Source: an uncultured virus (IMG/VR IMGVR_UViG_3300022925_000007)
Lineage: Duplodnaviria; Heunggongvirae; Uroviricota; Caudoviricetes
Virus record (IMG/VR): IMGVR_UViG_3300022925_000007
Reading direction: 5' to 3' (one strand)
DNA length: 64,000 nucleotides
Under the pieces are notes generated by a model. That model worked only from the letters and a program-made list of their open reading frames with translations. It did no database searches and was not told the DNA's origin. How positions within the stretch are numbered: position 1 is the first letter of the stretch; the number at the start of each line of letters is the position of its first letter. Position numbers and translations under genes: made by a program. Below are positions 9,271 to 53,694 of this stretch, piece by piece.

Positions 9271-9282
9271 TAGGAGATAAGC

Positions 9283-10356
9283 ATGAATCCAGAACAGGAA
9301 AATGTTGAGCTCCACGATGACGAGCAGGAAATCGTGGAAGCTGCTGCAGAAAAAATGCCAGTCGGCACCGAAGACGACTCAGAGAAATCTGTGGCGAAAG
9401 CGGGCGACGCAACTGGTAAAGCACCACTGCCTTCAACTGGCACTGCATCTCACAATACTAAGCAAGAGCCAATGCCACGCACCAAGGCAGGTATGGTAAA
9501 TGCTATGTATGGTAAGATGAATGCTATGAAGAAGGTTGAACTTCAAGCAGCGTATAACAAAATGATGGGCGAAGAAGTTGAGATGGAAGACGAAGACGTC
9601 GTAACAGAAACCCGTGCGGTTGAAGTTAAGGTTGACTTCTCTGAAGATCTGAATGCTTTGATTGAGTCTGAAGCAACTCTTTCTGAAGAGTTCAAGGACA
9701 AGACTGCTGTAATCTTTGAAGCAGCTCTTAAGAGCAAACTCTCTACTGAAATTGATCGATTGGAAGAACAGTATCGTACCGAACTCGATGAGGAAATTGT
9801 CCGCACTCGAGATGACATGGTCGAGAAAGTTGATTCCTACCTTAACTACGTGGTTGAGAACTGGATGGAAGAAAACAAACTTGCTGTACGGCAAGGTTTG
9901 CGTACTGAAATTGCAGAAGATTTCATGAACGGTCTTAAGACTCTGTTCACTGAATCTTATGTAGACGTACCTGAGTCCAAGGTCGACCTCGTTGACGAAT
10001 TAGCGCAGCAAGTAGCAGAACTCGAAGAGTCTCTGAACAAGACTACTGAAAGTGCTATTCAAATGTCTGAGGCAATTGAGGGTTATCAGCGCGAAGCGAT
10101 TATTCGTGAGCATGCTGAAGGTCTTGCTGCTACTCAGATTGATAAATTACGCTCTCTTGTAGAAGACGTGGACTTTGACGACGAAGAATCTTTCTCTAAG
10201 AAAGTTAAGACCGTCAAAGAGTCATACTTCAACAGCAAGAAAGTATCTGCTGATGAGTCTATCGTAGAAGAAACTGAAGGCGAGGCAGATGATACTGTCG
10301 AGACTTCTAGTTCTACTTCTCAGTACCTCTCAGCGCTGAAGCGTTTTAACCAGTAA
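9283..10356 (+). CDS. gp22: Prohead core scaffold protein
   Basis: Acidic coiled coil; YLNYVVENW, FMNGLKTLFTE, VKESYF; precedes gp23. Confidence 0.93.
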   Translation: MNPEQENVELHDDEQEIVEAAAEKMPVGTEDDSEKSVAKAGDATGKAPLPSTGTASHNTKQEPMPRTKAGMVNAMYGKMNAMKKVELQAAYNKMMGEEVEMEDEDVVTETRAVEVKVDFSEDLNALIESEATLSEEFKDKTAVIFEAALKSKLSTEIDRLEEQYRTELDEEIVRTRDDMVEKVDSYLNYVVENWMEENKLAVRQGLRTEIAEDFMNGLKTLFTESYVDVPESKVDLVDELAQQVAELEESLNKTTESAIQMSEAIEGYQREAIIREHAEGLAATQIDKLRSLVEDVDFDDEESFSKKVKTVKESYFNSKKVSADESIVEETEGEADDTVETSSSTSQYLSALKRFNQ

Positions 10357-10379
10357 AAAAATAATAGGAGAAATATCTA

Positions 10380-11723
10380 ATGGATATTAACTATCAATCT
10401 TTAGTTGAGAAGTGGAGTCCCATCCTCGACGAAAATAGTGCGGGTGACATCAAAGATGCATACCGTCGTAAAGTAACTGCTGCTGTTCTTGAGAACCAAG
10501 AGCGTGCATTGCGTGAAGAGCGTTCTCAAGAGAGCGGTTTCCTCACAGAAGCAGCACCTGCTAACAACACTGCTAACGTAGGCACTTGGGATCCTGTCCT
10601 GATCGCTCTCGTTCGTCGTGCTATGCCTAACCTCATCGCTTATGATGTGTGTGGCGTACAACCTATGTCTGGTCCTACTGGTCTCATCTTCGCGATGCGT
10701 TCACAGTACAAGACTACCAAAGCTGGCGTTTCTGCGGGCGACGAAGCATTGTTCAACGAAGCAGCGGTCGGTTTCTCTGGCGACTCTTCTACTACTGGCA
10801 ACGGCACTGGTCCTTCAGGTCTTTCTGGTCTGACTGACTCTAACGGTGACTCTTCACTCAATAACGACCGTACTGGTCCTTATGCTGGTGACGCTTACAC
10901 TACTGCTGAAGCAGAAGCATTGGGCGACGGCGTTGGTGAGACCTTCGCTGAAATGGGTTTCGCAATCGAGAAGTCAACTGTTACTGCTAAGAGCCGTGCG
11001 TTGAAAGCAGAGTACACTCTTGAACTTGCTCAAGACTTGAAAGCAATTCATGGTCTTGACGCTGAGCAAGAGTTGGCGAACATTCTTTCTCAAGAAATCC
11101 TTGCAGAAATCAACCGCGAAGTAATTCGCACCATCAACTCTCAGGCGAAAACTGGTTGCTTGCAGTCTAACACTGCTATCAACGGTATCTTCAACCTTGA
11201 GACTGATGCTGATGGTCGTTGGTCTGTAGAGAAGTTCAAGGGTCTGATGGTTCAACTCGATCGCGAAGCAAACATCATTGCTAAAGAAACTCGTCGCGGT
11301 AAGGGTAACGTAGTAATCTGTTCTTCTGATGTTGCTACTGCTCTGCACGCTGCTGGTATGCTTGACTACAGTCCTGCTCTGTCTGCTAACCTTCAGGTTG
11401 ACGACACTGGTAACACTTTCGCAGGTGTACTGAACGGTCGTATGCGTGTATACATTGATCCATATGCAGAAGCAGACTATGTTACTGTTGGATTCAAGGG
11501 TACTAACCCATATGACGCTGGTGTATTCTACTGCCCATACGTACCTCTTCAGATGGTTCGTGCGGTTGGCGAAGATAACTTCCAGCCACGTATCGGGTTC
11601 AAGACTCGTTACGGCATGGCGTCTAACCCATTCGTTGGTGGTCCACACACTAACCAATTGGCGACTGCTAAGACTAACCAATACTACCGCATCTTCCGCG
11701 TTGACGGAATCCTTGCATCATAG
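10380..11723 (+). CDS. gp23: Major capsid protein
   Basis: GVQPMSGPTGLIFAMR, KSRALKAEYTLELAQDLKAIHGLDAE, FQPRIGFKTRYG. Confidence 0.98.
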   Translation: MDINYQSLVEKWSPILDENSAGDIKDAYRRKVTAAVLENQERALREERSQESGFLTEAAPANNTANVGTWDPVLIALVRRAMPNLIAYDVCGVQPMSGPTGLIFAMRSQYKTTKAGVSAGDEALFNEAAVGFSGDSSTTGNGTGPSGLSGLTDSNGDSSLNNDRTGPYAGDAYTTAEAEALGDGVGETFAEMGFAIEKSTVTAKSRALKAEYTLELAQDLKAIHGLDAEQELANILSQEILAEINREVIRTINSQAKTGCLQSNTAINGIFNLETDADGRWSVEKFKGLMVQLDREANIIAKETRRGKGNVVICSSDVATALHAAGMLDYSPALSANLQVDDTGNTFAGVLNGRMRVYIDPYAEADYVTVGFKGTNPYDAGVFYCPYVPLQMVRAVGEDNFQPRIGFKTRYGMASNPFVGGPHTNQLATAKTNQYYRIFRVDGILAS

Positions 11724-15173: not shown

Positions 15174-15776
15174 ATGAATAAACCAGCAAACGCACACTAC
15201 GTCGACAACGCAAAATTTTCTCAGGCGGTTTTAGACTACGTAAAGAAAGCAAACGAATGCAGAAAAAGAGGAGAGGACAACCCCGTAGTTGACGACTACA
15301 TCGCTCAGTGCTTTCTTAGAATAGCAGAAGGACTATCATTCAAATCAAACTTTTCAGGGTACACCTATCGAGAGGAAATGGCGATGGACGCAGTAGAGAA
15401 CTGCCTCCGTGCTATTCGCAACTATGATATAGACGCGGCAACTCGAACAGGCAAACCAAACGCATTCGCCTACTTCACGCAAATATCTTGGTATGCTTTT
15501 CTTCGAAGAATCGCCAAAGAAAAAAAGCAACAGGATCTCAAACTCAAATACCTCGCGGAGTCAGGCTATGAAGAGTTTATGATTAACAACGAAGAAGACC
15601 CTGAGTCAGCACGTGCGATTCAAAGTTTCATCGATAGTTTGCGGCAGAGAATCGACGAGATAAAGGAAAAGGATTCGAAATTCGAAGATTACAAAAAAAC
15701 GCATCGTACGCGAGCGCGCAAGACACAAGACTCTGACCTATCAGTATTCTTTGACATGGACGAATTAGAAGTATGA
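15174..15776 (+). CDS. gp55: Late transcription sigma factor
   Basis: HYVDN, NFSGYTYREEM, NAFAYFTQI, AFLRRIAKEKKQ. Confidence 0.96.
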   Translation: MNKPANAHYVDNAKFSQAVLDYVKKANECRKRGEDNPVVDDYIAQCFLRIAEGLSFKSNFSGYTYREEMAMDAVENCLRAIRNYDIDAATRTGKPNAFAYFTQISWYAFLRRIAKEKKQQDLKLKYLAESGYEEFMINNEEDPESARAIQSFIDSLRQRIDEIKEKDSKFEDYKKTHRTRARKTQDSDLSVFFDMDELEV

Positions 15777-16840: not shown

Positions 16841-17073
16841 TAACCACCCACGATAAATGGCGTGCGCTTAAAGAAGCGTGCGTCGACACTGCTGCTGGCG
16901 CACTTATAAACATACCCATAAACTGGGCATTACTATCCCTTGCCTTTGCGACAGAGATGACGGCACTTCAGGCAACGATACTGATCACTACAGTTATCAC
17001 CTGTATAGCGATTGCCAGAAAAATGTATATACGGTTACACTTCCATAAAAGGATGTTGAATGATCAGGTTTAA
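16837..17073 (+). CDS. Small two-TM membrane protein
   Basis: Hydrophobic helices; overlaps both gp47 stop and gp46 start. Confidence 0.6.
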   Translation: MITTHDKWRALKEACVDTAAGALINIPINWALLSLAFATEMTALQATILITTVITCIAIARKMYIRLHFHKRMLNDQV

Positions 17074-18778
17074 CAGAGTCCGGTATAAGAACTTTCTTTC
17101 GACCGGAGATAAATTCACAGAGATTGATTTAAACGCAACGAAGACTACGCTCATCGTTGGACAAAACGGTTCCGGCAAGTCTACGATGCTTGACGCTATA
17201 TCGTTTGCCCTGTTTGGTAAACCGCACCGCAATATTAATAAACCGCAGTTGGTCAACTCTGTCAATAAAAAAGGGTGTGTCGTCGAGGTTGAGTTTGAGA
17301 TAAATAAAAATCAGTTCAAGGTAGTTCGCTCGATTAAACGCTCGCGGTTTGAGATATGGAAGAACGGCACACTTCTAAATCAGAACTCGCACAGCAAAGA
17401 ATATCAGAAAATTCTAGAGCAGAATATACTGAAGTTGAACCATAAAACCTTTCATCAGGTAGTGGTGCTAGGGTCTTCATCGTTTATACCTTTTATGCAA
17501 TTATCTGCGAACAACCGCAGGGAGGTAATCGAAGACCTACTGGACATCAACGTATTCAGCAAGATGAATCAGCTGCAGCGCGAGAAGAACGCTGCGCTGA
17601 AGGATAGGGTCAATGATAACCTGCACAAGATCGACTTGATCTCAACCAAAGAAGAGGGGCAGAGAAAATACATACGCGAGATATCTAGGATCAACGATGA
17701 CGTCAAGCAAGAGAAAGAGGATCTTATACAGAGATACCGAACGGAAAAGGACACGCACGTTGCTGCTGTAACAGCGCTGAATGATAAGATAGCAGCGAAT
17801 AACGCAGGGTTGGACGAGGAGTTAAATGCCGCGCGATTGGAAGTGACTGGATTGCGCGATGCCGAAACAGAAATCACGACTAAAATAAAAGCACTGGTAA
17901 AGGAAACAAAGTTTTATGAGAACAACCAATCGTGTCCGACCTGCGAGCAGGACATCGACGAAGATCTCAAGCAAAGCAAGGTCGGACAAGCAAGAGTCAA
18001 GGCAACCGAGTTTCAATCACGTATTGCTGAAATCGCTTCGAGAAAAAGCGAAGCAACCGACAAACTAACACGTGCCGAGGAAAGACTGCGGCAAAATACT
18101 GAATGGCAATCAGAAATACAAACCAAACAGAATCTGATACGCAACTGCGATGCCGAGATCAGCATAGCGCAAGAAGATATAAACAACCTGACCAATGATA
18201 AGTCAGACCTGACCAAAGCAAAGCAAGATCACGATGCGCTATTGGAAGAAAGTAGAAAACTGCAAGAAACCAAACTGCAACTTAATGAGCAGCAGCAATA
18301 TAATACGGTTGTGCTTGAGTTGCTCAAAGATACAGGGTTTAAGACTAAGATTATTAAGCAGTATTTACCAGTTATCAATAAATTGGTCAACACCTATCTA
18401 CAGGTACTTGACTTCTTTGTGCATTTTAATTTAGATGAAAACTTTGACGAGTCGATTCGGTCACGATACCGTGATTCCTTTAGTTATGATTCATTTAGTG
18501 AAGGCGAAAAGCAGCGGATCGACCTCGCCTTGTTGTTCACGTGGCGGCAGATTGCTAAAATGAAGAACAGCGTTTCTACCAACCTCCTAGTGTTGGATGA
18601 AACCTTTGACTCATCCCTCGACCATGATGGTATTGAAAACCTAATGAAGATATTACATACACTCGGTGATGATACGAATATATTTGTAATATCCCATAAG
18701 GGTGACTTGCTCGAGGGCAAGTTTGATAGCAAAATCGAATTTGTTAAGCACAAAAATTTCTCAAAGATGAAGGTATAA
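17060..18778 (+). CDS. gp46: Recombination ATPase subunit (Rad50/SbcC-like)
   Basis: GQNGSGKS, CPTC zinc hook, FSEGEK, LDETFD, ISH. Confidence 0.96.
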   Translation: MIRFNRVRYKNFLSTGDKFTEIDLNATKTTLIVGQNGSGKSTMLDAISFALFGKPHRNINKPQLVNSVNKKGCVVEVEFEINKNQFKVVRSIKRSRFEIWKNGTLLNQNSHSKEYQKILEQNILKLNHKTFHQVVVLGSSSFIPFMQLSANNRREVIEDLLDINVFSKMNQLQREKNAALKDRVNDNLHKIDLISTKEEGQRKYIREISRINDDVKQEKEDLIQRYRTEKDTHVAAVTALNDKIAANNAGLDEELNAARLEVTGLRDAETEITTKIKALVKETKFYENNQSCPTCEQDIDEDLKQSKVGQARVKATEFQSRIAEIASRKSEATDKLTRAEERLRQNTEWQSEIQTKQNLIRNCDAEISIAQEDINNLTNDKSDLTKAKQDHDALLEESRKLQETKLQLNEQQQYNTVVLELLKDTGFKTKIIKQYLPVINKLVNTYLQVLDFFVHFNLDENFDESIRSRYRDSFSYDSFSEGEKQRIDLALLFTWRQIAKMKNSVSTNLLVLDETFDSSLDHDGIENLMKILHTLGDDTNIFVISHKGDLLEGKFDSKIEFVKHKNFSKMKV

Positions 18779-18779
18779 T

Positions 18780-18959
18780 ATGAGCAAGAAGAAAAAGTTG
18801 AAGGTCGGCGATTTGATTAGACACACGGTTCAGTCAACGGGCGATATTAGAACGGGAACGGTTCACCAGATGCTATCCACGCAGTTCACCTACAAGGCAG
18901 ACAACGGCGAACTATATTTCTGCTTCTATAACGAATCTTGGAAAATGCTTGAGAATTGA
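18780..18959 (+). CDS. Small hypothetical protein (59 aa, below the ORF-track cutoff)
   Basis: ATG just after gp46 stop; MSKKKKLKVGDLIRH... Confidence 0.55.
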   Translation: MSKKKKLKVGDLIRHTVQSTGDIRTGTVHQMLSTQFTYKADNGELYFCFYNESWKMLEN

Positions 18960-18977
18960 TTTTTATTCAGGTACAAT
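18949..18977 (+). promoter_or_regulatory. Sigma70-like promoter of the DNA-modification operon
   Basis: TTGAGA-N17-TACAAT. Confidence 0.6.
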
Positions 18978-19003
18978 AGTGTTGTGTTTATAGGAAGGTG
19001 CAA

Positions 19004-20416
19004 ATGGATACGGTAACTATCGGCGATTACTGCTGGAAAAAATTCAAAGGCGACGAGGGGCAGGACGTCTATGTTGCTCAGTTCAAGATTGATGACGATA
19101 CGGTACTCGGGCAGTATGTCGACGAGGGATCTTATGACATTCTAGTCGATTCTGATGCTGACTTTTATTTGCCTAGCGAATCATTGGACGAAGGCAAACT
19201 CACAGAAGATAGACTCGCGTTCAAGTTTCGTAAGAATGTCTTCACCCCAGAAGAGCAGAAAGGTGCGCTCGAAGGTCTTTGGAGTGCAGCGAGTGAATCG
19301 AACAACCGTGGACTAGCAGCTGGTCCGCGCGAGGAACGAAACAAAGATCGCGACTGGGTAACAAACTATCAGACTGAAGTTTTGGAATGGTACATAAAAG
19401 GTCAACCGCAGAGCATTACAGGCGAAGATCCTATTGACGTTATCAAGAGTAAAATAGCAAAGAAAGAAGCGAGGGGCGAGAACGTCATTCGTGGAGAAGT
19501 TTGGTTGCGCAGTTCTATCGAAAAGGAATATGAGAGTTACGAGAACTTCTTCCCTGCGCTGGAAAAGAAACTTGCCGGCATGCCCATAACTATGGCACAG
19601 GCAGAGGCAAAGCAAGTCAAGGCGAAGTATATCTCTGATACTTCATACGCCACTGCCATCTGGTCGGGTATCGCAGGTTTCTATGGACGTTATCCGCGTA
19701 TACCTTATGGTCGGCCAACAGCATATACAGAGCATAATCCGCAGGACTTTGAAAAGTGTTATCCGTTTGCGCGTAAACTCGAGAAGACTTTCGCCGAACT
19801 GATTCCTGGGCGTCATGCGGCACAGAAGAAATATGCCGATGCTCTTGATAAAAGGTTTTTAATTGGGGAGGATACCACCTTCACTACCATTACAGTCAAT
19901 ACGACAACCCATGAACGTAATGCTCGGATGGCATGCCACCGCGATGCTGGTTCGCTCAATGACGGGTTCTCGAATCTAACTGTAATTAGTGACGGGCAGA
20001 AACACTGGAAAGGTGGTTATCTAGTCGCGCCCGAAGTACGTGCAGCCATCAACGTGCGGCCAGGCGACTTGTTATTAATCGACAACATGCGAGTGATACA
20101 TGGTAATACTCCTATCGAAGCACCCGATAGTGGTAAGGAAGATCTACTGCGTATGTCGTTGGTGTTTTACTTCCGCGAAGATATGCAGCATCTGGGTAGT
20201 TGGGAGTATGAAAAGATGCGCAGGACTTATGTCGACGAACGACGGTTGAATAAAGATCATCCGTTATGGCGGCAGTCATGGAATGGTGTGAGTCCTGGCA
20301 TGTGGGATGAACGCGAGTGGTATGATTGGTTAGAAACCAATGGCGGGAAAAATATGTTAACCGAATACCACCCCAAAGCATCTGAAGAAGAAGGCACGCT
20401 AGAGGCATTTTTCTAA
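19004..20416 (+). CDS. TET/JBP-family 2OG-Fe(II) dioxygenase (putative DNA thymine hydroxylase)
   Basis: FTTITVN, HxD (ACHRDAG), distal His (IHGNTP), RMSLVFYFRE. Confidence 0.85.
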   Translation: MDTVTIGDYCWKKFKGDEGQDVYVAQFKIDDDTVLGQYVDEGSYDILVDSDADFYLPSESLDEGKLTEDRLAFKFRKNVFTPEEQKGALEGLWSAASESNNRGLAAGPREERNKDRDWVTNYQTEVLEWYIKGQPQSITGEDPIDVIKSKIAKKEARGENVIRGEVWLRSSIEKEYESYENFFPALEKKLAGMPITMAQAEAKQVKAKYISDTSYATAIWSGIAGFYGRYPRIPYGRPTAYTEHNPQDFEKCYPFARKLEKTFAELIPGRHAAQKKYADALDKRFLIGEDTTFTTITVNTTTHERNARMACHRDAGSLNDGFSNLTVISDGQKHWKGGYLVAPEVRAAINVRPGDLLLIDNMRVIHGNTPIEAPDSGKEDLLRMSLVFYFREDMQHLGSWEYEKMRRTYVDERRLNKDHPLWRQSWNGVSPGMWDEREWYDWLETNGGKNMLTEYHPKASEEEGTLEAFF

Positions 20417-21636
20417 TGATTCTGGGAAGGCACTCGGAAATACATGAACAAAAAGAAATAAGCGTCCTTGAAGAGGGGATCGACTTTAGGAATCCTCTTG
20501 TCCGCCGCGAGGTGTTTTTCCGTTTTTATCATTTCCACTTGAAGTATAGAGCACATCCTGGTGCCGTTTATTATGTCATGCCATTTCTGTCAAAGAAGTT
20601 TGACTGGAGTTTTGAAGAAAAACTTTGGTTTGCGTTTATCAATGGCGCCACTCAAAACCCATTAACTTCTTGGGTCATCTTCAATCATTTTCCAGACCCC
20701 CACTCGACTACTGTTGATGAGATGGAATTGTGGCACCGCAAATACTGGAAGAACCTAGATTACGACATTGATAGAAGGTATCAAAAGGGTCACTTTGTTG
20801 AGATGTTTGAAGATTATAAAAAGCATCTTGGCGGCAGATCTCAAAAAGAATTTTTCGAATCGCTAGCGAACACCGACGACCCTTATCGCAATTTTCAAAA
20901 TGTGTGGGACTATGTGTTCAACAACTTTTTTATGTACGGTCGTTTGTCAACCTTTTCATATCTTGAATATCTTAAGATCATGGGTTTGAGCATCGACTGT
21001 GACAGTTTATTCATATATGATAAGTCTGGTTCTGCTAGTCATCGCGCAGGATTGTGTTATGTGCTTGGAAGGGATGAGTTTGATGTTCATAAGAACAACG
21101 TAAATATGCACCCTGAAGTTTCAAACGGACACACTAAGGAAATAATGGATTGGTTGTTTGTTGAGGGCGAACTCTTACTAAAAGAGGCAAAGGAAAGGTT
21201 TAGAGGAGAGGAGTTCTTTCATGACGTCAATTATTTCACTCTCGAATCAACGTTGTGCTGCTATAAGTCATGGCATCGTGTCAACAGAAGATACCCCAAT
21301 GTTTACAACGATATGTTCCATGATAGAATAAGAAAGGCAGAAACAAGAGACTGGAGCAAGATAGACGGTTCCGATATAAAATTTGATATTTTCTGGGAGG
21401 CGAGGAAAGAAATGCTTCCAGAAAATATCAGAGTTGAGGACAACCCAAAAGATCCAGGACTTGTGAAGGTGAAACAAAACTGGTATCGTTTGACTGGCGA
21501 GGTTCCTGTTCTAGAACACTTTGACCCTGTTTTCAAATCGTCATTTTCTGATAGGTGGAGACAAATGTCAGTCGAATGGTATAAAGAAAAGATAAAAGAA
21601 GAAACCGACATATCAACACTTGAGGCATTTCTTTGA
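20416..21636 (+). CDS. Amino acid:DNA transferase (aGPT-PPlase family, HhH-glycosylase-like)
   Basis: WFAFING, DRRYQK, GRLSTFSYLEYL, TLESTLCCYK motifs; adjacent to kinase and TET genes. Confidence 0.75.
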   Translation: MILGRHSEIHEQKEISVLEEGIDFRNPLVRREVFFRFYHFHLKYRAHPGAVYYVMPFLSKKFDWSFEEKLWFAFINGATQNPLTSWVIFNHFPDPHSTTVDEMELWHRKYWKNLDYDIDRRYQKGHFVEMFEDYKKHLGGRSQKEFFESLANTDDPYRNFQNVWDYVFNNFFMYGRLSTFSYLEYLKIMGLSIDCDSLFIYDKSGSASHRAGLCYVLGRDEFDVHKNNVNMHPEVSNGHTKEIMDWLFVEGELLLKEAKERFRGEEFFHDVNYFTLESTLCCYKSWHRVNRRYPNVYNDMFHDRIRKAETRDWSKIDGSDIKFDIFWEARKEMLPENIRVEDNPKDPGLVKVKQNWYRLTGEVPVLEHFDPVFKSSFSDRWRQMSVEWYKEKIKEETDISTLEAFL

Positions 21637-22208
21637 TTGTTCGAAAACTAAAAAACAGAGATGAATATGCTAAGTTGGTGACCAAAGAGAATAAGAAAAA
21701 GGATAAGTTCTGCGGCAGGTTTCTCAGCAAAACAGATAAAATGGATGCATGGGACAGAGTCTGGTGTGTTTTTGACCAAGACGATTTAACAATGATGGGC
21801 GCGGTCATGGTTACCGTTGCCAAAAGAAAGGCAGGAAACATTGCTAATCTTCAACTTCTTCACACTTGGTATGATCATAGAAGAAAGGGTGTCGCAAACG
21901 TTCTTGTTCAGAAAGCATTTGAAGTTGCTAAGTCCCAAGCAAAGTATATGAGGATCTCAATGATTGCCGACGAAGGTTCGTTAGCGTTTTATAGAAGCGT
22001 TGGATTTGTTATTATGGGAATGCAGAAAGCAGGGTCTTATTTCTCGATGTGCCGTTTGTCCGGCGATAGTCTTCACGACTCGCACTTTGACTTGATGGAT
22101 CCAGTCATTCGCGGAGTTGCTTGCTCAGGAACAATGGGTTCGGTCGTTAAGTTTCTCGTTGACCTGCCTGAAATGAATCACGAAGAAAATCTTGAATGTT
22201 TGCTTTGA
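21633..22208 (+). CDS. GNAT-family acetyltransferase
   Basis: Motif A RRKGVA and motif B AFYRSVGF. Confidence 0.82.
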   Translation: MIVRKLKNRDEYAKLVTKENKKKDKFCGRFLSKTDKMDAWDRVWCVFDQDDLTMMGAVMVTVAKRKAGNIANLQLLHTWYDHRRKGVANVLVQKAFEVAKSQAKYMRISMIADEGSLAFYRSVGFVIMGMQKAGSYFSMCRLSGDSLHDSHFDLMDPVIRGVACSGTMGSVVKFLVDLPEMNHEENLECLL

Positions 22209-22226
22209 ATGAGGTAGAATAGAATT

Positions 22227-22793
22227 ATGAAATATATCTATCTGATTGGAATCCCTGGGACAGGGAAGACCACCATTATGAAGAGATTCATGGAGTCTCG
22301 AGAATGGAGGCAAGAACGAGTTGTCGATCTTCTCGATACTCACGTCTCGGACAATGTTCGCGTCTTAGGAAAATATGAAGAAAACGAAACTTTTTCTGGC
22401 ACGGATAAACTGAGTATGGCAGTCGCGCCAAAAGTTATTGAGTGGTTAAACACATCCCCCGACGAGATAATCGTCGGCGAGGGAGATCGTCTCAACTCTA
22501 GGGCAGTATTTGAAACAGCAAAGAAAAATGGTGAACTAATAATCGTGCACCTTACAGTTTCTGCTGGAGAAAGAGAACGTCGATATGACCTTCGCGGTTC
22601 TGAACAATCCGAGAAGTTCATCCAAACCACAACAACTAAGTGTAAGAACGTCATCGAAACCTTCGGTGATCAGGATACCCTTTTCGGTGTCGAGAAGGGG
22701 AACGTCGTCGAGTTTGCTCATGAGAACCCTTCAGATACCGACAAAATCGTTGCTTTCCTGAATGAGCAAACCTCCTCCTCGCTAAGTCCCTGA
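22227..22793 (+). CDS. P-loop kinase (putative 5-hmU DNA kinase)
   Basis: GIPGTGKT, LGKY...FSGTD, EGDRL, ERERR lid; operon context. Confidence 0.78.
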   Translation: MKYIYLIGIPGTGKTTIMKRFMESREWRQERVVDLLDTHVSDNVRVLGKYEENETFSGTDKLSMAVAPKVIEWLNTSPDEIIVGEGDRLNSRAVFETAKKNGELIIVHLTVSAGERERRYDLRGSEQSEKFIQTTTTKCKNVIETFGDQDTLFGVEKGNVVEFAHENPSDTDKIVAFLNEQTSSSLSP

Positions 22794-22843
22794 TTTTGTT
22801 AGGGATTTTACTGCTTTACTTTTGACCGTATAGTAGTCATAAT
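22783..22843 (+). promoter_or_regulatory. Early promoter cassette, copy 1 (IHF-like site + TTTACT-N17-CATAAT)
   Basis: TAAGTCCCTGATT (one mismatch to the IHF consensus) starts 32 bp before TTTACT. Confidence 0.8.
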
Positions 22844-22866
22844 ATGACTCAAATATAGGAGTCTTT

Positions 22867-25083
22867 ATGGATATTCACAACAAATCAATCGTAGCAAAAT
22901 TACTCGCGGCAGAGAACATCACTGTCGTGCAGGAAAAGGTATCTACTGCTTCCTTCGATGTCAAAAACCGTGTCCTTAGACTTCCCCTCTGGGCGGACGT
23001 CGAGGATTATGTTAGCGATCACCTGATCGGTCACGAGGTGGGTCATGCACTATACACTCCCCTTGAAGGTTGGCATGAAGCAGTTTGCGGCAAAGGTCGG
23101 GCATACAAGTCATTCCTCAACGTTGTTGAGGATGCGCGTATCGAGCGTTTGATACAGAAAAAGTATCCTGGCCTTCGCCGCAGTTTTATTAAGTCATACC
23201 GCAAACTTCTAAAGGACGGGTTCTTTGGTAAGGACGCAAGCGAGATCAATAAGATGAACCTTATTGACCGCATCAACGTATTCTTCAAGTGCGGCGAAAC
23301 CATCGGCGTTCGTTTTACTGCTGAGGAGCGCGTTTGGTTGGATAGAATATCTGCCGCCGAAACTTGGGAAGACGTTCAGCGCGTGACCGAGGACCTCTTC
23401 GCTTTCTGTAAGGAAAAGGCAGAAGAAGAGCAGCAGCAACTCCAGGAGATGATGACCGCCATGCCCGAAGAAGGCGAGAACGACCAAGAGGACGAAGAAG
23501 AAGGTTCCGGCGATGAATATGACGATGAATATGACGAAGGGGATGACGATGGCATCAATGATGCGTACGAAGACCTCTTTGGCGATGAAAATGACGGCGA
23601 GGAAGGGGCAGGTAAAGAAGGCGGACTAGAGCACTCAATCGCGTCAGAAACTGACGAAGAAGTTCGTAAGGCAATCGACCATATCTATAATGAGGACATT
23701 GCCGGCAATGTCTATAATTACAAACTCCAAGACCTCAAGAAAAACTGGAACGAATATGTTATCAGTTACAAGACGGTTTTGAAAGAGGTGGAATCCAAAT
23801 TAGATCATCCCTATGCTCCAACTAATTCGCTAATGCGTGTTGGTGAGGCATTATATGATGCGTGGTACGTTCAGAATAACAAACTCGTTAATCATATGGT
23901 CAAGGAGTTTGAGATGCGCAAGTCAGCAGCGCAGTATGCTCGTGCTAGCGTATCCAAGACTGGCGTTATCGACACGGTCTTGATGAACAACTACAAAATC
24001 ACCGACGACATATTCAAGAAGGTCACGGTGGTTCCAGAAGGTAAGAACCACGGGTTCATTATGTATTTGGACATGTCTGGTTCTATGAATACCTGTATGA
24101 AAGAGACGGTCGACCAACTGATGTTACTTGCACAGTTTACGCGCAAGATCGGCGTTCCCTTCCGCGTGTATGGTTTTAGCACATATGTGCCGCAAAATTA
24201 TGAGTCAGATGCGACGTCCCGAAGAACCTTGACCAAGGTAGAAGATAAGACAATATGTGTGCACCCCAGGAGCATGAGTCTTATCGAACTTTTTAATGAA
24301 AATATGAGCGGGTTAGAATTTACGACGATGGGTAAGATATTACTCGGTTCATATGTGTCTCGTCAGTCATACCCCTGGGATCACCCCACTCTTGACAGGA
24401 GAGAATTCCATTTAAGGCATGTTCCTCACATGTTGCAGTTGGGCGGCACGCCTCTGGATCATGCTATAACGTTAGGCATACCTCTTGCGCGCGAGTTCCG
24501 CAAGCAAAAGCAAATCGATATACTCAATACCATCTTCCTCACAGACGGCGCTTCTCACCCCATGGGCATATGGAATGCTGATGAGACGATTGAGGGAGGT
24601 CGCTACATCGACTGGTTACCAAGATATAAAGATTGCTATCTGACCATTGGTTACGAGAACAAACTTTACCGTCCGTCGGTGCAGAAATTCTCCGGCAGGG
24701 TCGACTGGACGAGTTGCCTTATGGAGATCTATCGCGAGGCGACAGGCAGCATTAACGTTGGTTACCGCATAGTAGAAAATGGTCCGCGAGCGGTTGAGCG
24801 CGAAGTATCCAACAGCAAGCGTGTTCCTTTCCTGGATTTTGAAACTGCACAAAAAGTAACAAAGCAGTATAAAGAGAAGGGATATGTGAGTGTTCAGGAT
24901 AACCGTGGCACCGACGAGCAGTTCTTCCTGCCAATGAAAATGTTGCGCATCGCCTCGAGCAAGATGGATGATATAAAAGAGAACGCCACGAAAGCACAAA
25001 TACGAACTGCGTTTAAAAAGACTAACACTAGTAACAAGTCATCGCGTTTGATGCTTGTAGAATTGATGAAGAGGGTAGCATAA
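22867..25083 (+). CDS. CobT-like protein: HExxH metallopeptidase + acidic linker + VWA domain
   Basis: HEVGH, NVVEDARIE, MIDAS DMSGS, GGTPL, LTDG. Confidence 0.82.
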   Translation: MDIHNKSIVAKLLAAENITVVQEKVSTASFDVKNRVLRLPLWADVEDYVSDHLIGHEVGHALYTPLEGWHEAVCGKGRAYKSFLNVVEDARIERLIQKKYPGLRRSFIKSYRKLLKDGFFGKDASEINKMNLIDRINVFFKCGETIGVRFTAEERVWLDRISAAETWEDVQRVTEDLFAFCKEKAEEEQQQLQEMMTAMPEEGENDQEDEEEGSGDEYDDEYDEGDDDGINDAYEDLFGDENDGEEGAGKEGGLEHSIASETDEEVRKAIDHIYNEDIAGNVYNYKLQDLKKNWNEYVISYKTVLKEVESKLDHPYAPTNSLMRVGEALYDAWYVQNNKLVNHMVKEFEMRKSAAQYARASVSKTGVIDTVLMNNYKITDDIFKKVTVVPEGKNHGFIMYLDMSGSMNTCMKETVDQLMLLAQFTRKIGVPFRVYGFSTYVPQNYESDATSRRTLTKVEDKTICVHPRSMSLIELFNENMSGLEFTTMGKILLGSYVSRQSYPWDHPTLDRREFHLRHVPHMLQLGGTPLDHAITLGIPLAREFRKQKQIDILNTIFLTDGASHPMGIWNADETIEGGRYIDWLPRYKDCYLTIGYENKLYRPSVQKFSGRVDWTSCLMEIYREATGSINVGYRIVENGPRAVEREVSNSKRVPFLDFETAQKVTKQYKEKGYVSVQDNRGTDEQFFLPMKMLRIASSKMDDIKENATKAQIRTAFKKTNTSNKSSRLMLVELMKRVA

Positions 25084-25661
25084 TGGCGAATCATGTAAAT
25101 TCTTATTTGAGGTTCGAGTCAATCAGCGATGATGGCAAGAAAAGATTGAAGGAGGTTATAGACCTTATAAAGTCAAGAAGCGACCACATATATGAGCACC
25201 ACTTGGCGCTTTTTGCAAACGAATCGCTCGATGGTGTTGACATCAATTGGATGTGTGATAATGTTGGAGCGAAGTGGGCATATGCTACGGATATGGATGA
25301 GGACGGAATATCAATGTACTCAGCGTGGTCCCCGACCTCTGCCTTTTGTAAATGGTTGGTCGAGTATATCGGCGAGGTCGATGATTCGGTGACGGGGACT
25401 CACACGTATGAGGATGAGATGCCCAACTTTATCGGCGTTGACATATATGATGCCGGTGGTCACTTCGACGGCATTGAAATCGACAGCGAAGAAATGTTCG
25501 AGGAGATTACCACTGAGCACCCCGACTTACTTGAACTCTGGGACGAAGAAGAAGAATGCTGGAAGGATGACGGCGAGCAATACCAAGAAGTCCTATATGA
25601 TTGGATCGCCGACTGGCAATGGCGGCAAACAAAGTGTATGCTTGAGGCAGTGCCCTCCTAA
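25083..25661 (+). CDS. Hypothetical acidic protein (YubB/DUF1281-like ferredoxin fold possible)
   Basis: MANHV...GAKWA...SAWSP...YEDE. Confidence 0.55.
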   Translation: MANHVNSYLRFESISDDGKKRLKEVIDLIKSRSDHIYEHHLALFANESLDGVDINWMCDNVGAKWAYATDMDEDGISMYSAWSPTSAFCKWLVEYIGEVDDSVTGTHTYEDEMPNFIGVDIYDAGGHFDGIEIDSEEMFEEITTEHPDLLELWDEEEECWKDDGEQYQEVLYDWIADWQWRQTKCMLEAVPS

Positions 25662-26018: not shown

Positions 26019-27167
26019 ATGAGCGATAAATTATTTGAAGCACTGGTCAACGTATACGGCAACGAACCGCGTGTACTCACCAAAGCAGAGATACGCCAAG
26101 TGGCGATCGATAATGGCATTAAGTCCACCCAGTCACTTCTGAAAACCATGGGTCGCGTATCGCGCGGCAAGTATCAGTTCCCCCCATCATCGGGTAACAA
26201 TGTTGTGCCCATCCCCAAACCAACGGAGGCATCCACATTGACCAGTACTGGCGACAATGGTTTTACCGATAACCTGATTCCTCAGGCGGACGACCTGTTC
26301 GTTCCGTTCGGTAACTACAAAATGGTGCGTGACGTGATCAAGTCGCGTATGTTCTATCCTATGTTCGTCACGGGTCTATCCGGCAACGGCAAAACTCAGA
26401 TGGTGCTCCAGGCATGCGCCGAAACGAAACGCGAAGTGATTCGCGTGAACTTCACGATCGAGACTGACGAGGACGACCTCATCGGTGGTTTCCGTTTGGT
26501 GAACGGCGAGACCAAGTTCTTCAAAGGACCAGTGATCAAAGCGATGGAGCGTGGCGCTGTCCTGCTCTGTGATGAGATCGACCTCGCTAACCCAGCGAAG
26601 GTAATGTGCCTTCAGTCTATCCTCGAGGGTTCGGGTTACTTTATCAAAAAGACTGGCGAGTACATCGCTCCCGCTCCTGGGTTCACCGTAATCTCCACCG
26701 CCAACACCAAAGGTAAAGGTTCGGAGAACGGACAGTTCATCGGTACTAATATCATGAACGAAGCATTCCTAGAGCGGTTCCCTATCACCTGTGAGCAGTC
26801 GTATCCGACCGTTACAGTGGAGCGCAAGATACTCGATAGGGTATTCGCCTCGGTGGGCAAAACCGCTGACAGCGATCTTGAGTTCGCTCAGAAGCTCGTT
26901 GACTGGGCGGATATAATTCGTAAGACTTACTATGACGGTGGCGTGGATGAGATTATCTCAACTCGGCGTCTCGTGCATATCGTGCGCGCCTATGCCATCT
27001 TCGGCAAGCGCGACCGTGCTATCGAACTCTGCATCAACCGTTTCGATGATGAGATCAAGGATGCTTTCTTCTCCCTCTACGAAAAGATAGACGCTGACGT
27101 TGCTGGTGCATCTGAAGAAAATTCAGATAATGACTTTACTTCTGATTCTACATCAGTAGAATATTGA
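26019..27167 (+). CDS. cobS: CobS-like MoxR/AAA+ ATPase
   Basis: GLSGNGKT, LCDEID, TANTKGKG, NEAFLERF, ISTRRL. Confidence 0.9.
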   Translation: MSDKLFEALVNVYGNEPRVLTKAEIRQVAIDNGIKSTQSLLKTMGRVSRGKYQFPPSSGNNVVPIPKPTEASTLTSTGDNGFTDNLIPQADDLFVPFGNYKMVRDVIKSRMFYPMFVTGLSGNGKTQMVLQACAETKREVIRVNFTIETDEDDLIGGFRLVNGETKFFKGPVIKAMERGAVLLCDEIDLANPAKVMCLQSILEGSGYFIKKTGEYIAPAPGFTVISTANTKGKGSENGQFIGTNIMNEAFLERFPITCEQSYPTVTVERKILDRVFASVGKTADSDLEFAQKLVDWADIIRKTYYDGGVDEIISTRRLVHIVRAYAIFGKRDRAIELCINRFDDEIKDAFFSLYEKIDADVAGASEENSDNDFTSDSTSVEY

Positions 27168-27191
27168 TATTGCTTGAGATTGGAGAACATA

Positions 27192-27875
27192 ATGCAATTA
27201 ACTGATAAAACTATCACCCTGCTAAAGAACTTTGCCTCGATACAACCCAACCTTGTGGTTACGAAAGGCAATACTATCAAGACCATCGCAGAAGCGAAGA
27301 ACATCATCGCGAGTGCTACTCTTGAGCAGGAGTTTCCTGTTGACTTCGGTATCTATGACCTCGATGAGTTTCTCGGCGTGATTGACTTGGTCGACTCGCC
27401 GACCCTAGTCTTCGATGACGATTACTTGACGGTTAGCGATTCGAACGGCACGTCCAAGGTTCGGTATTACTACTCGGCGGCAGATAACCTGACGACCATG
27501 AGTAAAGAAGTTAGCATGCCCAACACGGTTATCGAGTTGAAGTTGACCAAGGCAACCTTGGAAAAGATTCGCCGTGCTTCTGCTGCTCTGGGTCATGATA
27601 AACTGTTGATTCAGGACAACGACGGTTCTATTTCTTTATCGGTTACTGATCTGAAGGATGATACCTCCAACTCCTTTACGATTGAGGTTCCTGGAACGTA
27701 TGAGGAGGGTGCTAAGTTTAGTATGCTAATCAATATAGCGAACTTCAAGTTAGTACCTGACGATTACACCGTATATCTTGCGGATAAACTAATCTCGAAA
27801 TTTGAGAGTGCTTCGGGTGATGTCAACTACTTAATTGCTCTCGACAAATCATCAACATACGAAGGAGGTAATTGA
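27192..27875 (+). CDS. gp45: Sliding clamp
   Basis: LKNFASIQ, FGIYDLDEFL; upstream of gp44. Confidence 0.93.
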   Translation: MQLTDKTITLLKNFASIQPNLVVTKGNTIKTIAEAKNIIASATLEQEFPVDFGIYDLDEFLGVIDLVDSPTLVFDDDYLTVSDSNGTSKVRYYYSAADNLTTMSKEVSMPNTVIELKLTKATLEKIRRASAALGHDKLLIQDNDGSISLSVTDLKDDTSNSFTIEVPGTYEEGAKFSMLINIANFKLVPDDYTVYLADKLISKFESASGDVNYLIALDKSSTYEGGN

Positions 27876-29335: not shown

Positions 29336-29621
29336 GATCAATTACAAGTTTTGCGAAGATAAGTTGATCGCCGAGTTCAGTAAGTATATCGACACAACGT
29401 ATTCCGGTCACTATGGTCAGGGTGGACTCCAGTCTGCCGAGATTATAGTTGATCGCGGTCATGGCATGGGGTTCTTTTCTGGTAACATCGACAAGTATAA
29501 CGATCGCTATGGTAAGAAAGGCGATAACCCTGAGGACTGGCGCAAGGATATACTGAAAACCATTCACTATGGGTTTCTTAAGTTGTATGAGCACGATCGC
29601 GTCCATGGGCGTTGTAAATGA
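29319..29621 (+). CDS. Hypothetical protein (DUF3310-like)
   Basis: TYSGHY, GNIDKYNDRYGKK, DILKTIHY. Confidence 0.65.
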   Translation: MSSSPKINYKFCEDKLIAEFSKYIDTTYSGHYGQGGLQSAEIIVDRGHGMGFFSGNIDKYNDRYGKKGDNPEDWRKDILKTIHYGFLKLYEHDRVHGRCK

Positions 29622-30355
29622 AAATCCTACTTACAGGAACCCAAGGGTATCGCCGTGGGTTTATCGCCAACCGATTCCTCGAGTTATACCGTGACAAGTA
29701 TGACATCGAAGAATACGAGTACGATATTCGCACCGGTGTCTTTCTTGACAGATATGATATGGTTGTCCACCTTGCTGCTATGGCAGGTGTTCGCCGTTCG
29801 CACGAGGAACCGGAGTTATACTGGGACGTGAACGTGAAGGCATCCCAGCGCCTGTTCAAGTTCTACAGTGAACGCAACGTCCCCGTGGTTTATGCCTCCT
29901 CTTCTTCAATCTACGAATGGTGGTTGTCACCGTATGCCAGTACCAAGTGGATGATGGAATGCATTGCCCCCGAGGAATCCCTCGGTCTCCGCTTTCATAC
30001 AGTGTATGGACCAAACAGTCGTGAAGATATGCTTTACGATATGCTTATCAAGCGGAAGGTGGGTTACCTGACCAACCACACGCGCGACTGGACGCATGTT
30101 GATGACGTCTGCGCCGCCATTGATATCTGTATCGAGAACTTCAAATCCATGAAGCAATATCGGTCGATTGATGTTGGTAATGGTATGCCCGTATCAGTTG
30201 TCGATATGGCGAATAAGGTATGGCCAAATAACAACCTGCCAGTCAAGGAAGTGACTGGCGAACGCGAACACACGCTTGCCGACCCGACTATTCTCAAACG
30301 ATACGGTTGGAACGCCGAGCATCATATTATGACGGATCTTGTTTATGAGCAGTAA
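29618..30355 (+). CDS. NAD-dependent nucleotide-sugar epimerase/dehydratase
   Basis: HLAAMAGVR, ASSSS, YxxxK (YASTK), RFHTVYG, RDWTHVDD. Confidence 0.88.
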   Translation: MKILLTGTQGYRRGFIANRFLELYRDKYDIEEYEYDIRTGVFLDRYDMVVHLAAMAGVRRSHEEPELYWDVNVKASQRLFKFYSERNVPVVYASSSSIYEWWLSPYASTKWMMECIAPEESLGLRFHTVYGPNSREDMLYDMLIKRKVGYLTNHTRDWTHVDDVCAAIDICIENFKSMKQYRSIDVGNGMPVSVVDMANKVWPNNNLPVKEVTGEREHTLADPTILKRYGWNAEHHIMTDLVYEQ

Positions 30356-32416: not shown

Positions 32417-33343
32417 GTGCAAATGAAACGTGTACTATTCTTTGTTATGATGCTTTTTTCTTTTTCACCCAACTCTCAAGAAGCCGGCATGATTGATTTG
32501 AGAGTTAATCCTGGTCCAGTCGGCGGTGCGGGGCACTGGTATTCACTGCGAACTATGAAAGGATCGGAATACTGGAAGGAACCTGCTTTGCTTCCTGATA
32601 TTATTGAAAATGAAGATGGCACGTATAGTATGGCAGGAGAAACGCCGATCAGCCTCGCTATTGTTTTACATCCGGAGTATTACGCAGACAGTGAACCGTG
32701 GCGACGAGCAATCAACGAAGTGCGCGAAGTAGAGCAAATGTTTCGTAATTCTGGTGTTCCAATTAGATTTATTATTGAGTCGATTGAATACATGGTTGAT
32801 ATGGACGACTCAACATATGGCGCATTTCAACAACTGAAAGCAAAAGTATCAAGTATTGCGGTGAGGACTGGCGCCGACCTTGTTATAGGTTTAAAACCTC
32901 AGTATTTTGGTGATCAATATTGCGGTGTTGCCACTATAGGCGACGACCAATTGTATACAACTTTGCCGGCAATTTCAGCATGTGGTCCAAAAACTCTGGC
33001 GCACGAATTGGGGCATAACTTTGGGTTGCACCACAGTTTTAATCCAAAACCTGACCAGAGAGGTTATTGTCGAAAAGGTGATGATGGTTATGAATGCGAA
33101 GAAGGCACGGTGATGAGTTATGCAAAAAAACGATTAAAATTTTTCGCAAACAAAAATGCAAAATACAAAGGATTGCCACTCGGCATCGAAGGGTATGATG
33201 CAGTAGAGTGGTTGAATAGAGTGAAAACAGGCAGAGGTCTTGCCTACGAACTACGGTATGAAGGAGCAAATATGTTACTGACTGACGATTCCTTTTTAAC
33301 AGATGATATTTTTTGTGGTAATACGCTTTCTGAAGACGATTAA
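32417..33343 (+). CDS. Secreted metzincin (reprolysin-like) metallopeptidase
   Basis: HELGHNFGLHH and Met-turn TVMSY; signal peptide. Confidence 0.85.
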   Translation: MQMKRVLFFVMMLFSFSPNSQEAGMIDLRVNPGPVGGAGHWYSLRTMKGSEYWKEPALLPDIIENEDGTYSMAGETPISLAIVLHPEYYADSEPWRRAINEVREVEQMFRNSGVPIRFIIESIEYMVDMDDSTYGAFQQLKAKVSSIAVRTGADLVIGLKPQYFGDQYCGVATIGDDQLYTTLPAISACGPKTLAHELGHNFGLHHSFNPKPDQRGYCRKGDDGYECEEGTVMSYAKKRLKFFANKNAKYKGLPLGIEGYDAVEWLNRVKTGRGLAYELRYEGANMLLTDDSFLTDDIFCGNTLSEDD

Positions 33344-33405
33344 TCATTTCTTTTTCGTTTTAAATGTTATATAATATGCATACTTGATTGAATAATGGAG
33401 AAAGA

Positions 33406-53491: not shown

Positions 53492-53694
53492 TGGCATTGG
53501 TATTACTCGACTCGTCTGATAATTTTAATCAGTTCATTGACAAGTTCAACAATATGTCAACATTGTCTGGCGACGCTGACTTACTGAGCATCGCCAATCT
53601 GGTTGAACGAGTAAACAATTTAGATAGTGACGTTGACAATAATTTGACAGGACGCTTGATTGACATATATGATTCTGCTGGCAATTTGATATGA
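53491..53694 (+). CDS. Hypothetical late protein
   Basis: Coupled at both ends. Confidence 0.55.
   Translation: MALVLLDSSDNFNQFIDKFNNMSTLSGDADLLSIANLVERVNNLDSDVDNNLTGRLIDIYDSAGNLI

Follow-up and report, generated by a model that had tools for sequence, protein, structure and literature searches.

How a phage could enlarge thymine after its DNA has been copied, and how the enzymes that would do so might reach the new strands, is the question raised by a four-gene cassette at positions 19004-22793 of a 64-kb stretch from the uncultured virus IMGVR_UViG_3300022925_000007. This stretch, hereafter the window, was scanned over its whole 64,000 nt. An initial annotation, made from the letters alone, had described four adjacent co-oriented genes of a hypermodification pathway; the gene arrangement and the families that it listed were borne out, and the catalytic motifs of all four products are intact. 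The open reading frames (ORFs) are:

18998 (GTG) or 19004 (ATG)-20416, + strand: ORF1, TET/JBP-family Fe(II)/2-oxoglutarate (2OG) dioxygenase (TET), 470 aa from the ATG; PF12851, E 1.7e-14.
20416-21636, + strand: ORF2, amino acid:DNA transferase (AADT; aGPT-Pplase clade 2 superfamily), 406 aa; phrog_3271, E 4e-70.
21633-22208, + strand: ORF3, GNAT acetyltransferase, 191 aa, with a TTG start that overlaps the AADT stop; Pfam GNAT matches.
22227-22793, + strand: ORF4, P-loop kinase (Ploopntkinase3), 188 aa, a putative 5-hydroxymethyluracil (5-hmU) DNA kinase; PF18751, E 3.4e-14.

We consider it likely that these genes form a post-replicative thymine hypermodification operon whose TET, AADT and GNAT are recruited by the sliding clamp. 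In the proposed pathway TET would convert thymine in DNA to 5-hmU and the P-loop kinase would phosphorylate the hydroxymethyl group; Cys281 of the AADT would then attack C6, with Glu277 as the acid, the phosphate would leave, and an amine or hydroxyl nucleophile would join the exocyclic methylene, after which GNAT and acetyl-CoA would acetylate the free amino group of the adduct. TET, AADT and GNAT would be recruited through polymerase-type C-terminal tails to gp45 clamps left on newly replicated DNA. The order of oxidation on the DNA, activation, conjugation and N-acetylation had already been put forward in the initial annotation, and it is still the best reading that homology offers, through the families, their motifs and their conserved linkage. 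Its background was dated in one respect, as it had 5-hmU pyrophosphorylated and PPi displaced: according to PMC8989533, the intermediate is the phosphorylated 5-PmdU, which arises by transfer of the gamma-phosphate and not from a pyrophosphate that leaves as PPi.

The gene junctions are tight: TET and AADT meet at TAATG with a 1-nt overlap, AADT and GNAT at TTGA with a 4-nt overlap, and GNAT and kinase are separated by an 18-nt gap that contains GAGG. The cassette is therefore operon-like, and its junctions indicate translational coupling. The TET start given initially, ATG 19004, is likely the true one, with AGGAAGG 5 nt upstream and a TET database cluster whose length of 470 aa agrees with it. 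The sigma70-like promoter that had been placed ahead of the genes is present as a match:

18949-18977, + strand: sigma70-like promoter match TTGAGA-17-TACAAT, 10/12 positions.

As evidence for a promoter it is nevertheless weak, because the region is rich in such matches (14 found within 18600-23000 vs 7.8 ± 2.3 expected).

The Tet_JBP profile search that had been suggested for ORF1 was positive (53.8 bits vs a cut-off of 34.9, residues 247-394), and the iron triad and 2OG arginine (H314, D316, H368, R385) are unchanged across 23 aligned sequences. The AlphaFold2 model (pLDDT 81.9) has a TET-type jelly-roll fold, with CcTet, NgTET1, TET2 and CMD1 as the best Foldseek matches in the PDB (E 2e-10 to 7e-8). 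The protein carries a long N-terminal extension and a C-terminal extension that terminates in TLEAFF (20396-20413), and belongs to a family of long TETs (460-490 residues) from environmental T4-like phages, to which 2346 of the 7999 candidates scored could be assigned at E<=1e-5. Cultured relatives are found in phage C48C1 (66% identity), Stenotrophomonas phage DLP_6 (50%) and Caulobacter phage Cr30 (39%), where the gene is labelled hypothetical protein in C48C1 and, by misannotation, SNF2 repair protein in DLP_6 and Cr30. A fused ParB was considered as an explanation for the 230-residue N-terminal extension and dropped, since no Pfam match supports it. A ParB gene adjoins related short TETs in two viral contig loci (L017 and L029) and in phage Prince; none was found by PHROGs or Pfam among window ORFs of at least 100 aa.

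The substrate of TET is most likely T rather than 5-methylcytosine (5mC), judging from 64 kb without a C5-methyltransferase and from the linkage to 5-hmU enzymes. A different substrate would imply a different pathway, in which the dioxygenase acts on 5mC made by a C5-methyltransferase encoded beyond the window or by the host, and kinase, AADT and GNAT decorate 5-hydroxymethylcytosine. In its favour, 5mC is the substrate of phage TET clades A and B, TET89 acts on both bases (PMC8256090), our model most closely resembles 5mC-oxidising TETs in structure, and the genome is visible over 64 kb; yet the window holds no PF00145-type gene, its sole DNA methyltransferase being of Dam type, C5-methyltransferases co-occur with only 6% of 5mYOX pathways (PMC13229309), and 5-hmU is the substrate of all characterised AADTs and 5-HMUDKs, so that we regard the cytosine pathway as improbable. 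The nearest record, a 23-kb fragment overlapping the window, likewise gave no PF00145 match. More generally, the initial statement that the window lacks C5-methyltransferase, dUMP hydroxymethylase (thymidylate-synthase-like), pyridoxal-phosphate (PLP) enzyme and radical SAM genes holds for ORFs of at least 100 aa in PHROGs and Pfam searches.

Membership of ORF2 in the aGPT-PPlase family, which had been named as a point on which the initial proposal could fail, is met by a divided answer. A direct Pfam scan speaks against it, as ORF2 matches no Pfam family at E<=0.1 and thus misses PF18724, as do its closest relatives (L004-L007). PF18724 is matched at E<=1e-5 by 6 of the 11 ORF2 relatives scanned, and hhalign comparison of ORF2 and nine relatives with four characterised AADTs (M6 gp51, PaMx11 gp46, phiW-14 gp109 and ViI gp247) gave a probability of 96.6% (E 6.1e-10, 247 columns). 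Moreover, E277 and C281, within TLESTLCC, align with the E..C of all four, and mutation of the Glu or the Cys abolished activity in M6 gp51 and ViI gp247 (PMC8989533). ORF2 is also 38% identical to the annotated aGPT-Pplase 2 of phage Montesquieu and ~29% identical to ViI-like phages (tblastn); a sequence search against the PDB returned none at E<=1. By profile-profile comparison and motif ORF2 is thus a predicted AADT despite the missing Pfam match. Its clade in the tree comprises 14 rows with no characterised enzyme inside, for which reason we rejected the tree as a guide to the nucleophile.

For ORF4, the P-loop nucleotide kinase profile search proposed earlier was also positive (PF18751, 53.2 bits vs a cut-off of 27), and a Walker A motif, GIPGTGKT, occupies residues 8-15. 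The protein matches phrog_800, labelled 'terminase small subunit', a label that the records of M6 gp54 and PaMx11 gp49 bear as well. It shows weak similarity to the validated kinase M6 gp54 (27% identity over 88 aa, E 1e-5) and shares the Ploopntkinase3 family with mycobacteriophage Prince gp4. The assignment as a 5-hmU DNA kinase is tempered by the fact that validated kinases fall in other Pfam families, M6 gp54 in PF18748 (HMUDK_HMUD1) and ViI gp243 in PF18747 (HMUD2).

Where the four genes came from bears on whether 5-hmU is made before or after replication. Relatives of ORF2 are encoded in 33 viral contig loci (L-numbers), 3 of which are this same phage; the counts that follow use the other 30. 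A kinase homologue adjoins the AADT in 25/30 and a homologue of the window GNAT in 0/30, while a TET is found in 10/30 by tblastn, to which Pfam adds 3 more among the 11 loci scanned. In cultured mycobacteriophages the order ParB-TET-AADT-kinase occurs. The sister group of ORF2 (support 99/100; 64-66% identity in the alignment, 66-68% by tblastn) consists of L004-L006, large phages with thymidylate-synthase-like genes and HMUDK kinases and without TET, that is, of the pre-replicative route. The long T4-type TET is followed by other genes elsewhere: glycosyltransferases in L040 and L041, TAGT in DLP_6, UDP-galactopyranose mutase in C48C1, and an AADT and a TAGT-like gene in Cr30; the region between gp46 and gp45 is the position that the window TET shares with those T4-like phages. 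A TET of a T4-like family joined to an AADT whose sister group is of the pre-replicative type marks the cassette, as far as these relationships tell, as a modular, mosaic assembly. The same sister group is what would favour incorporation of 5-hydroxymethyldeoxyuridine (5-hmdU) from the nucleotide pool, in the manner of ViI and M6, by a dUMP hydroxymethylase encoded beyond the window, TET then oxidising further or cleaning residual T. We think this very unlikely, given that TET and AADT share one operon with a 1-base overlap, that surveys read TET-linked clusters as lacking a hydroxymethylase (PMC8989533), and that no thymidylate-synthase-like gene was found in the window.

A further gene of the related loci, phrog_3650 ('unknown function'), accompanies the AADT clade of ORF2 in 24/30 loci; it is missing from L024 and from five short loci that are truncated close to the AADT. 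The phrog_3650 protein shares 45% identity with a protein that matches the Pfam PALP family and 31% with an annotated ACC deaminase, and a language-model atlas groups it with PLP enzymes, which we take as a lead only. It looks like a fold-type-II PLP enzyme on these similarities, and Pfam misses most of its members. Examples are:

L007, 1775-2835: phrog_3650.
L004, 9407-10462: phrog_3650.
L010, 8855-9862: phrog_3650.
L017, 11080-12126: phrog_3650.

Using three PLP companions from related loci as tblastn queries, we found no companion of this type in the whole 64-kb window. Gene order in the relatives is TET-PLP-AADT-kinase or AADT-PLP-kinase and in the window phage TET-AADT-GNAT-kinase, so that, by position, GNAT occupies the place held by the PLP enzyme in most relatives. 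Natural fusions of hypermodification genes also occur: PLP-AADT (757 aa, L031:8816-11089), AADT-P-loop kinase (498 aa, L020:9998-11494) and PLP-HMUDK (596 aa, L005:11218-13008).

This exchange guides our view of the product. PLP enzymes require a primary amine that is free, and in ViI gp226 acts on O-seryl-T; this suggests that the AADT product in the ORF2 clade would keep a free amino group and that GNAT would acetylate that group in the window phage. With GNAT in the place of the PLP enzyme, the product is probably an N-acetylated aminoacyl-thymine (e.g. N-acetyl-O-seryl-T) or 5-acetamidomethyl-uracil, the latter if ammonia or a simple amine serves as nucleophile. In PaMx11, gp48 failed to acetylate the secondary amine of N-alpha-GlyT (PMC8989533), so that an amino acid linked through its alpha-amine would be a poor acceptor; this argues against a glycine-type linkage.

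ORF3 itself exceeds the Pfam GNAT cut-offs (PF13508, 28.0 bits vs 27; PF00583, 27.7 vs 20.7), has RRKGVA (residues 83-88) as the acetyl-CoA motif (R/Q)xxGxA, and adopts a GNAT fold in its AlphaFold2 model, the nearest PDB entries being N-alpha-acetyltransferases and AAC(2') at E about 1e-5. Its family counts 74 representative clusters at E<=1e-3 in an exhaustive search and has a specific C-terminal extension, which here terminates in NLECLL (22188-22205). A scan of 14 of the longest members turned up 3 in which the acetyltransferase is joined to a specific 5-hmdU DNA kinase (HMUD2 or HMUDK_HMUD1) and another 3 in which it is joined to a generic P-loop domain; these fusions tie the family to thymidine hypermodification independently of the gene order seen here. 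Many members share a C-terminal motif, G(R/K)(R/K)GG(C/V)V(E), whose counterpart in the window protein is SGTMGSVVKF. A tblastn search with GNAT against 50,697 phage records gave no match, the viral contigs scanned with the GNAT alignment yielded only three contigs, all of this phage, and a metagenome scan returned no relative.

One could also place GNAT outside the DNA pathway, acetylating a protein or a small molecule and leaving the adduct unacetylated. GNATs are promiscuous and common in phages, orthology to PaMx11 gp48 is undetectable, and the structural neighbours are protein N-terminal acetyltransferases; the start of GNAT nevertheless overlaps the AADT stop by 4 nt, its family contains the fusions to 5-hmdU DNA kinases, and GNAT and its homologues carry polymerase-type tails (KTLEAFF, GTLEDFL). 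On balance we find a separate role very doubtful and retain N-acetylation of the thymine adduct as the last step of the pathway. Several observations do count against the pathway as we have drawn it. The gp48 result with N-alpha-GlyT is one, and the comparison of GNAT with gp48 (BLASTP E 0.008 over 29 aa), in which orthology was not detected, is another. Some ParB-less clade C1 enzymes were inactive on T or 5mC in E. coli, as stated in PMC13229309, and a dUMP hydroxymethylase or C5-methyltransferase may lie outside the 64-kb window.

The second half of the question is how such enzymes would meet new DNA. The follow-up analysis turned up a feature absent from the initial annotation, namely C-terminal tails on three cassette proteins that resemble the tail of the phage's own DNA polymerase. 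The other genes concerned, and the tails, are:

33388-35931, + strand: family B DNA polymerase (gp43 type), reference tail TLEDFFC at 35908-35928; phrog_262, E 0.
27174-27875, + strand: gp45-type sliding clamp, the proposed docking partner; phrog_223, E 2.7e-66; homologues carry PF09116.
15174-15776, + strand: gp55-type late sigma factor with a hydrophobic-acidic C-terminus, DLSVFFDMDELEV; phrog_234.
Window tails: DNA polymerase TLEDFFC; TET TLEAFF; AADT TLEAFL (21616-21633); GNAT NLECLL.

When the C-termini of all 98 non-overlapping + strand ORFs were surveyed, LE.[FL][FL] at most 1 residue from the C-terminus was found in 4/98 (polymerase, TET, AADT and GNAT), against a chance expectation of 0.05 for a pattern that was picked after the data had been seen. 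Among the matches listed, the tail motif stands at the C-terminus of 119/120 TET homologues vs 0/107 gp45 clamp homologues, and homologues of GNAT end in KTLEAFF, GTLEDFL, LNLETL and DLSSYFVTV. The tails of related or analogous systems read:

C48C1: polymerase ATLEDFFG; TET ISLEEFFV.
DLP_6: polymerase ATLDSFFA; TET ATLGDFFV; TAGT DLSSFFN.
Cr30: polymerase ADLSSLFD; TAGT-like SDLSKLF.
L004: polymerase ELDDWDF; AADT IIDDWA; HMUD2 kinase IFDEW.
L005: polymerase KLEEWF; AADT ISEWL.
ViI: polymerase VNLLSMMGKKG; gp247 VNLMSLLKR; gp243 VSLLGLMRKA.

In these sequences the enzyme tails co-vary with the tail of the phage's own polymerase in C48C1, DLP_6, Cr30, ViI and L004/L005. The ViI case (L044, NC_015296; 20129-23125, 24620-25534, 26077-27312) concerns the gp243 kinase and the gp247 serine:DNA transferase, both with tails that resemble the polymerase tail; the ViI PLP decarboxylase gp226 has no polymerase-like tail. 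No such tails were seen in M6, a siphovirus related to PaMx11, or in the ParB-type loci of siphovirus-like phages.

In T4, gp45 is bound by the tails of gp43, gp55 and gp33; the polymerase tail is an established clamp epitope in T4 and RB69, and a clamp epitope of gp55 has been described too (PMC2988020). By sequence, the hydrophobic-acidic tails of the three cassette enzymes fall in this class of gp45-binding epitope. Given their polymerase-type tails, TET, AADT and GNAT are probably recruited to gp45 clamps on newly replicated DNA. When the gp45 trimer was modelled together with TET residues 425-472, the complex scored 0.54, 0.40 and 0.44 (median 0.44), against 0.00 for the highest-scoring of 3 controls, and the runs share at least 38% of contacts with a partner pLDDT of at least 39. 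The mark used for such predictions was reached by 116/157 solved complexes and 2/215 mismatched pairs, and at scores <=0.60 only 18 of the 157 solved complexes passed, as did both passing mismatches. As an RB69 clamp-peptide complex has been solved, the score may also reflect memorisation by the predictor, and the prediction offers weak support for docking of the TET tail on gp45.

The shared tails might instead dock on a different partner that the enzymes have in common, or be a trace of common ancestry or of recombination at the ends of genes, a possibility to be taken seriously though not the one we favour. Several facts that speak against clamp docking leave room for it: besides the weak complex prediction, no PF09116 (gp45-family) match was obtained in the L005 and L006 records, yet their enzymes bear tails of WF type; L024 has a gp45-like ORF in its record and no clear tails; the window kinase lacks a clamp-type tail at its C-terminus; and a 2025 preprint (now NAR 2026) found no binding of T4 alpha-GT or beta-GT to gp45, with enzymes that were C-terminally His-tagged. 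Against a partner other than the clamp, or mere descent, stand the agreement between the tails and the polymerase tail of the same phage across six lineages whose motif dialects differ, the occurrence of tails on unrelated folds (dioxygenase, HhH-type transferase, GNAT, glycosyltransferase and kinases), and the standing of the polymerase tail as a clamp epitope in T4 and RB69.

Clamp recruitment could be extended beyond this phage, tentatively and at less than even odds: hypermodification in clamp-bearing phages might run on the sliding clamp, the clamp providing for long T4-type TETs the loading or activation that ParB provides for short ones, with an N-alpha-acetylated, side-chain-linked aminoacyl-thymine as the product in the window phage. 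ViI gp247 and gp243, TET-associated glycosyltransferases and hmU kinases elsewhere would, under the same extension, dock likewise.

Set against known systems, the kind of pathway is familiar. AADTs, 5-HMUDKs and the PaMx11 acetyltransferase were defined in PMC8989533, which also describes metavirome clusters with a TET_JBP gene in place of dUMP hydroxymethylase and TET_JBP-linked AADT/kinase clusters. Phage 5mYOX enzymes oxidise T in DNA and fall into ParB-dependent and ParB-independent subclasses, clade C1 being linked with GATases, kinases and AADTs, and GNAT domains occur in about 7% of 5mYOX contigs (PMC13229309, with Dataset S10); a ParB-TET-AADT-kinase system is annotated in Rhodococcus phage Tonitrus (PMC11955845). 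The novelty was overrated initially, as TET-linked AADT/kinase clusters and tailoring by an acetyltransferase (PaMx11 gp48) are in print; the likely product, an N-acetylated aminoacyl- or aminomethyl-uracil, may be undescribed. What is new, by comparison of gene content, is the GNAT-for-PLP combination without ParB and the joining of a long T4-type TET to an AADT. The four-gene combination of the window was not found in print (the comparison excluded published figures, e.g. Fig. 2 of PMC8989533), and the contigs of this phage and of L007, L024, L040 and L041 are not among the entries in the supplements of PMC8989533 and PMC13229309. Megablast of the cassette against the 50,697 phage records gave no match, and NCBIfam held nothing specific for any of the four proteins.

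Among known systems, a close parallel is the PaMx11 pathway to 5-acetylaminomethyl-dU (5-AcNmdU), which shares the order AADT, tailoring enzyme(s), acetyltransferase and kinase (gp46, the gp47 FAD lyase, gp48 and gp49) and the use of acetyl-CoA to N-acetylate an amine carried by the C5 side chain (PMC8989533). In PaMx11, however, a dUMP hydroxymethylase supplies 5-hmdU (the next gene is thymidylate synthase-like), whereas the window phage has TET; the FAD lyase, which has no counterpart in the window cassette, must expose a primary amine; and its GNAT is not detectably orthologous and its kinase belongs to a different Pfam family. The ParB-TET-AADT-kinase cassettes (clade C1 5mYOX neighbourhoods, PMC13229309; Prince genes 1-4; Tonitrus) resemble ours in uniting TET, an AADT of the same clade as ORF2 and a Ploopntkinase3 kinase in one operon, but the window has no detected ParB, has a GNAT and lacks the usual PLP companion, and in those ParB-linked and siphovirus-type loci that were examined, ORFs of the TET family measure 251-324 aa, in contrast to a window TET of 470 aa that is extended at both ends and bears a clamp-type tail.

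In the ViI 5-NeOmdU pathway (gp247, the PLP decarboxylase gp226 and the kinases gp67 and gp243), gp247 is the nearest characterised AADT to ORF2 and lies on the same major branch of the tree; the side chain of the amino acid forms the linkage, so that the alpha-amine stays free for tailoring, and gp247 and gp243 share with our enzymes the habit of ending like their polymerase. ViI differs in its pre-replicative supply of 5-hmdU, in tailoring by PLP decarboxylation rather than acetylation, and in its tail dialect, VNL(L/M)S(M/L)(M/L) followed by basic residues. The gp43, gp55 and gp33 epitopes of T4 and RB69 are interchangeable among proteins of different function (PMC2988020); they are in print for the polymerase and late-transcription proteins, and no published report of clamp tails on DNA base-modifying enzymes was found in the literature covered, which included PMC8989533, PMC13229309 and PMC8256090. 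Trypanosome JBP1/2 and base J offer a eukaryotic likeness in that a TET/JBP enzyme hydroxylates thymine in DNA before it is decorated, but base J is glucosylated, while in the window a kinase, a transferase and an acetyltransferase would follow and no J-binding domain is present.

If the reading is true, the small list of natural DNA bases would gain a new member and tailoring a new logic, in which a common scaffold is acetylated instead of undergoing PLP chemistry. Should the tails bind the clamp, this would explain how modification after replication can keep up with the fork and, as we infer, why some phage TETs are inactive when expressed alone in E. coli; it would also call for caution over C-terminal tags in reconstitution work. 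Cultured Cr30 and ViI are suited to direct tests of the clamp idea. Within 5 kb, Cr30 (L036, KF301602) encodes a long TET (5995-7323), an AADT (9021-10250; PF18724, E 1e-52) and a TAGT-like protein (10232-11158), the last two recorded as hypothetical proteins and the TET, as noted above, as a repair protein. Elsewhere among the related loci, a PemK/MazF-like toxin ORF (L006:8882-9202) sits inside the hypermodification region of a 155-kb phage contig.

The surroundings of the cassette are those of a T4-type genome. By its gene content the source is an uncultured T4-like phage and the window a fragment of its genome, with essentially every gene on the + strand. PHROGs assigns terminase, sheath, tube, portal, gp23-type capsid, UvsY, UvsW-type helicase, gp55 and NrdA, and further gp47/gp46 (SbcD/SbcC), the gp45 clamp, the gp44/62 loader, RegA, gp43 polymerase, UvsX and gp41; the polymerase shares 54% identity with its counterpart in phage C48C1 (Kyanoviridae). 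The cassette is bounded by gp46 (17060-18778) and a CobT-like gene (22867-25083, phrog_459 'peptidase'). The latter and a CobS-like AAA gene (26019-27167) flank a 192-aa ORF (25083-25661), which sits between the cassette and the clamp gene.

Three other features of the window deserve mention. The Dam-type N6-adenine DNA methyltransferase gene (PF02086, 41315-42163) makes it probable that the phage DNA is also adenine-methylated. Sugar-nucleotide-type genes are dispersed across the replication module (29618-30355, 36908-37828, 53691-54920 and 55320-56708), comprising an epimerase/dehydratase (a partial Pfam domain), UDP-glucose dehydrogenase N-terminal and central domains, DUF6267, and a cytidylyltransferase-like protein with DUF5824. 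Finally, an ORF for a reprolysin-like (M12B) metallopeptidase (32417-33343) lies directly upstream of the DNA polymerase gene.

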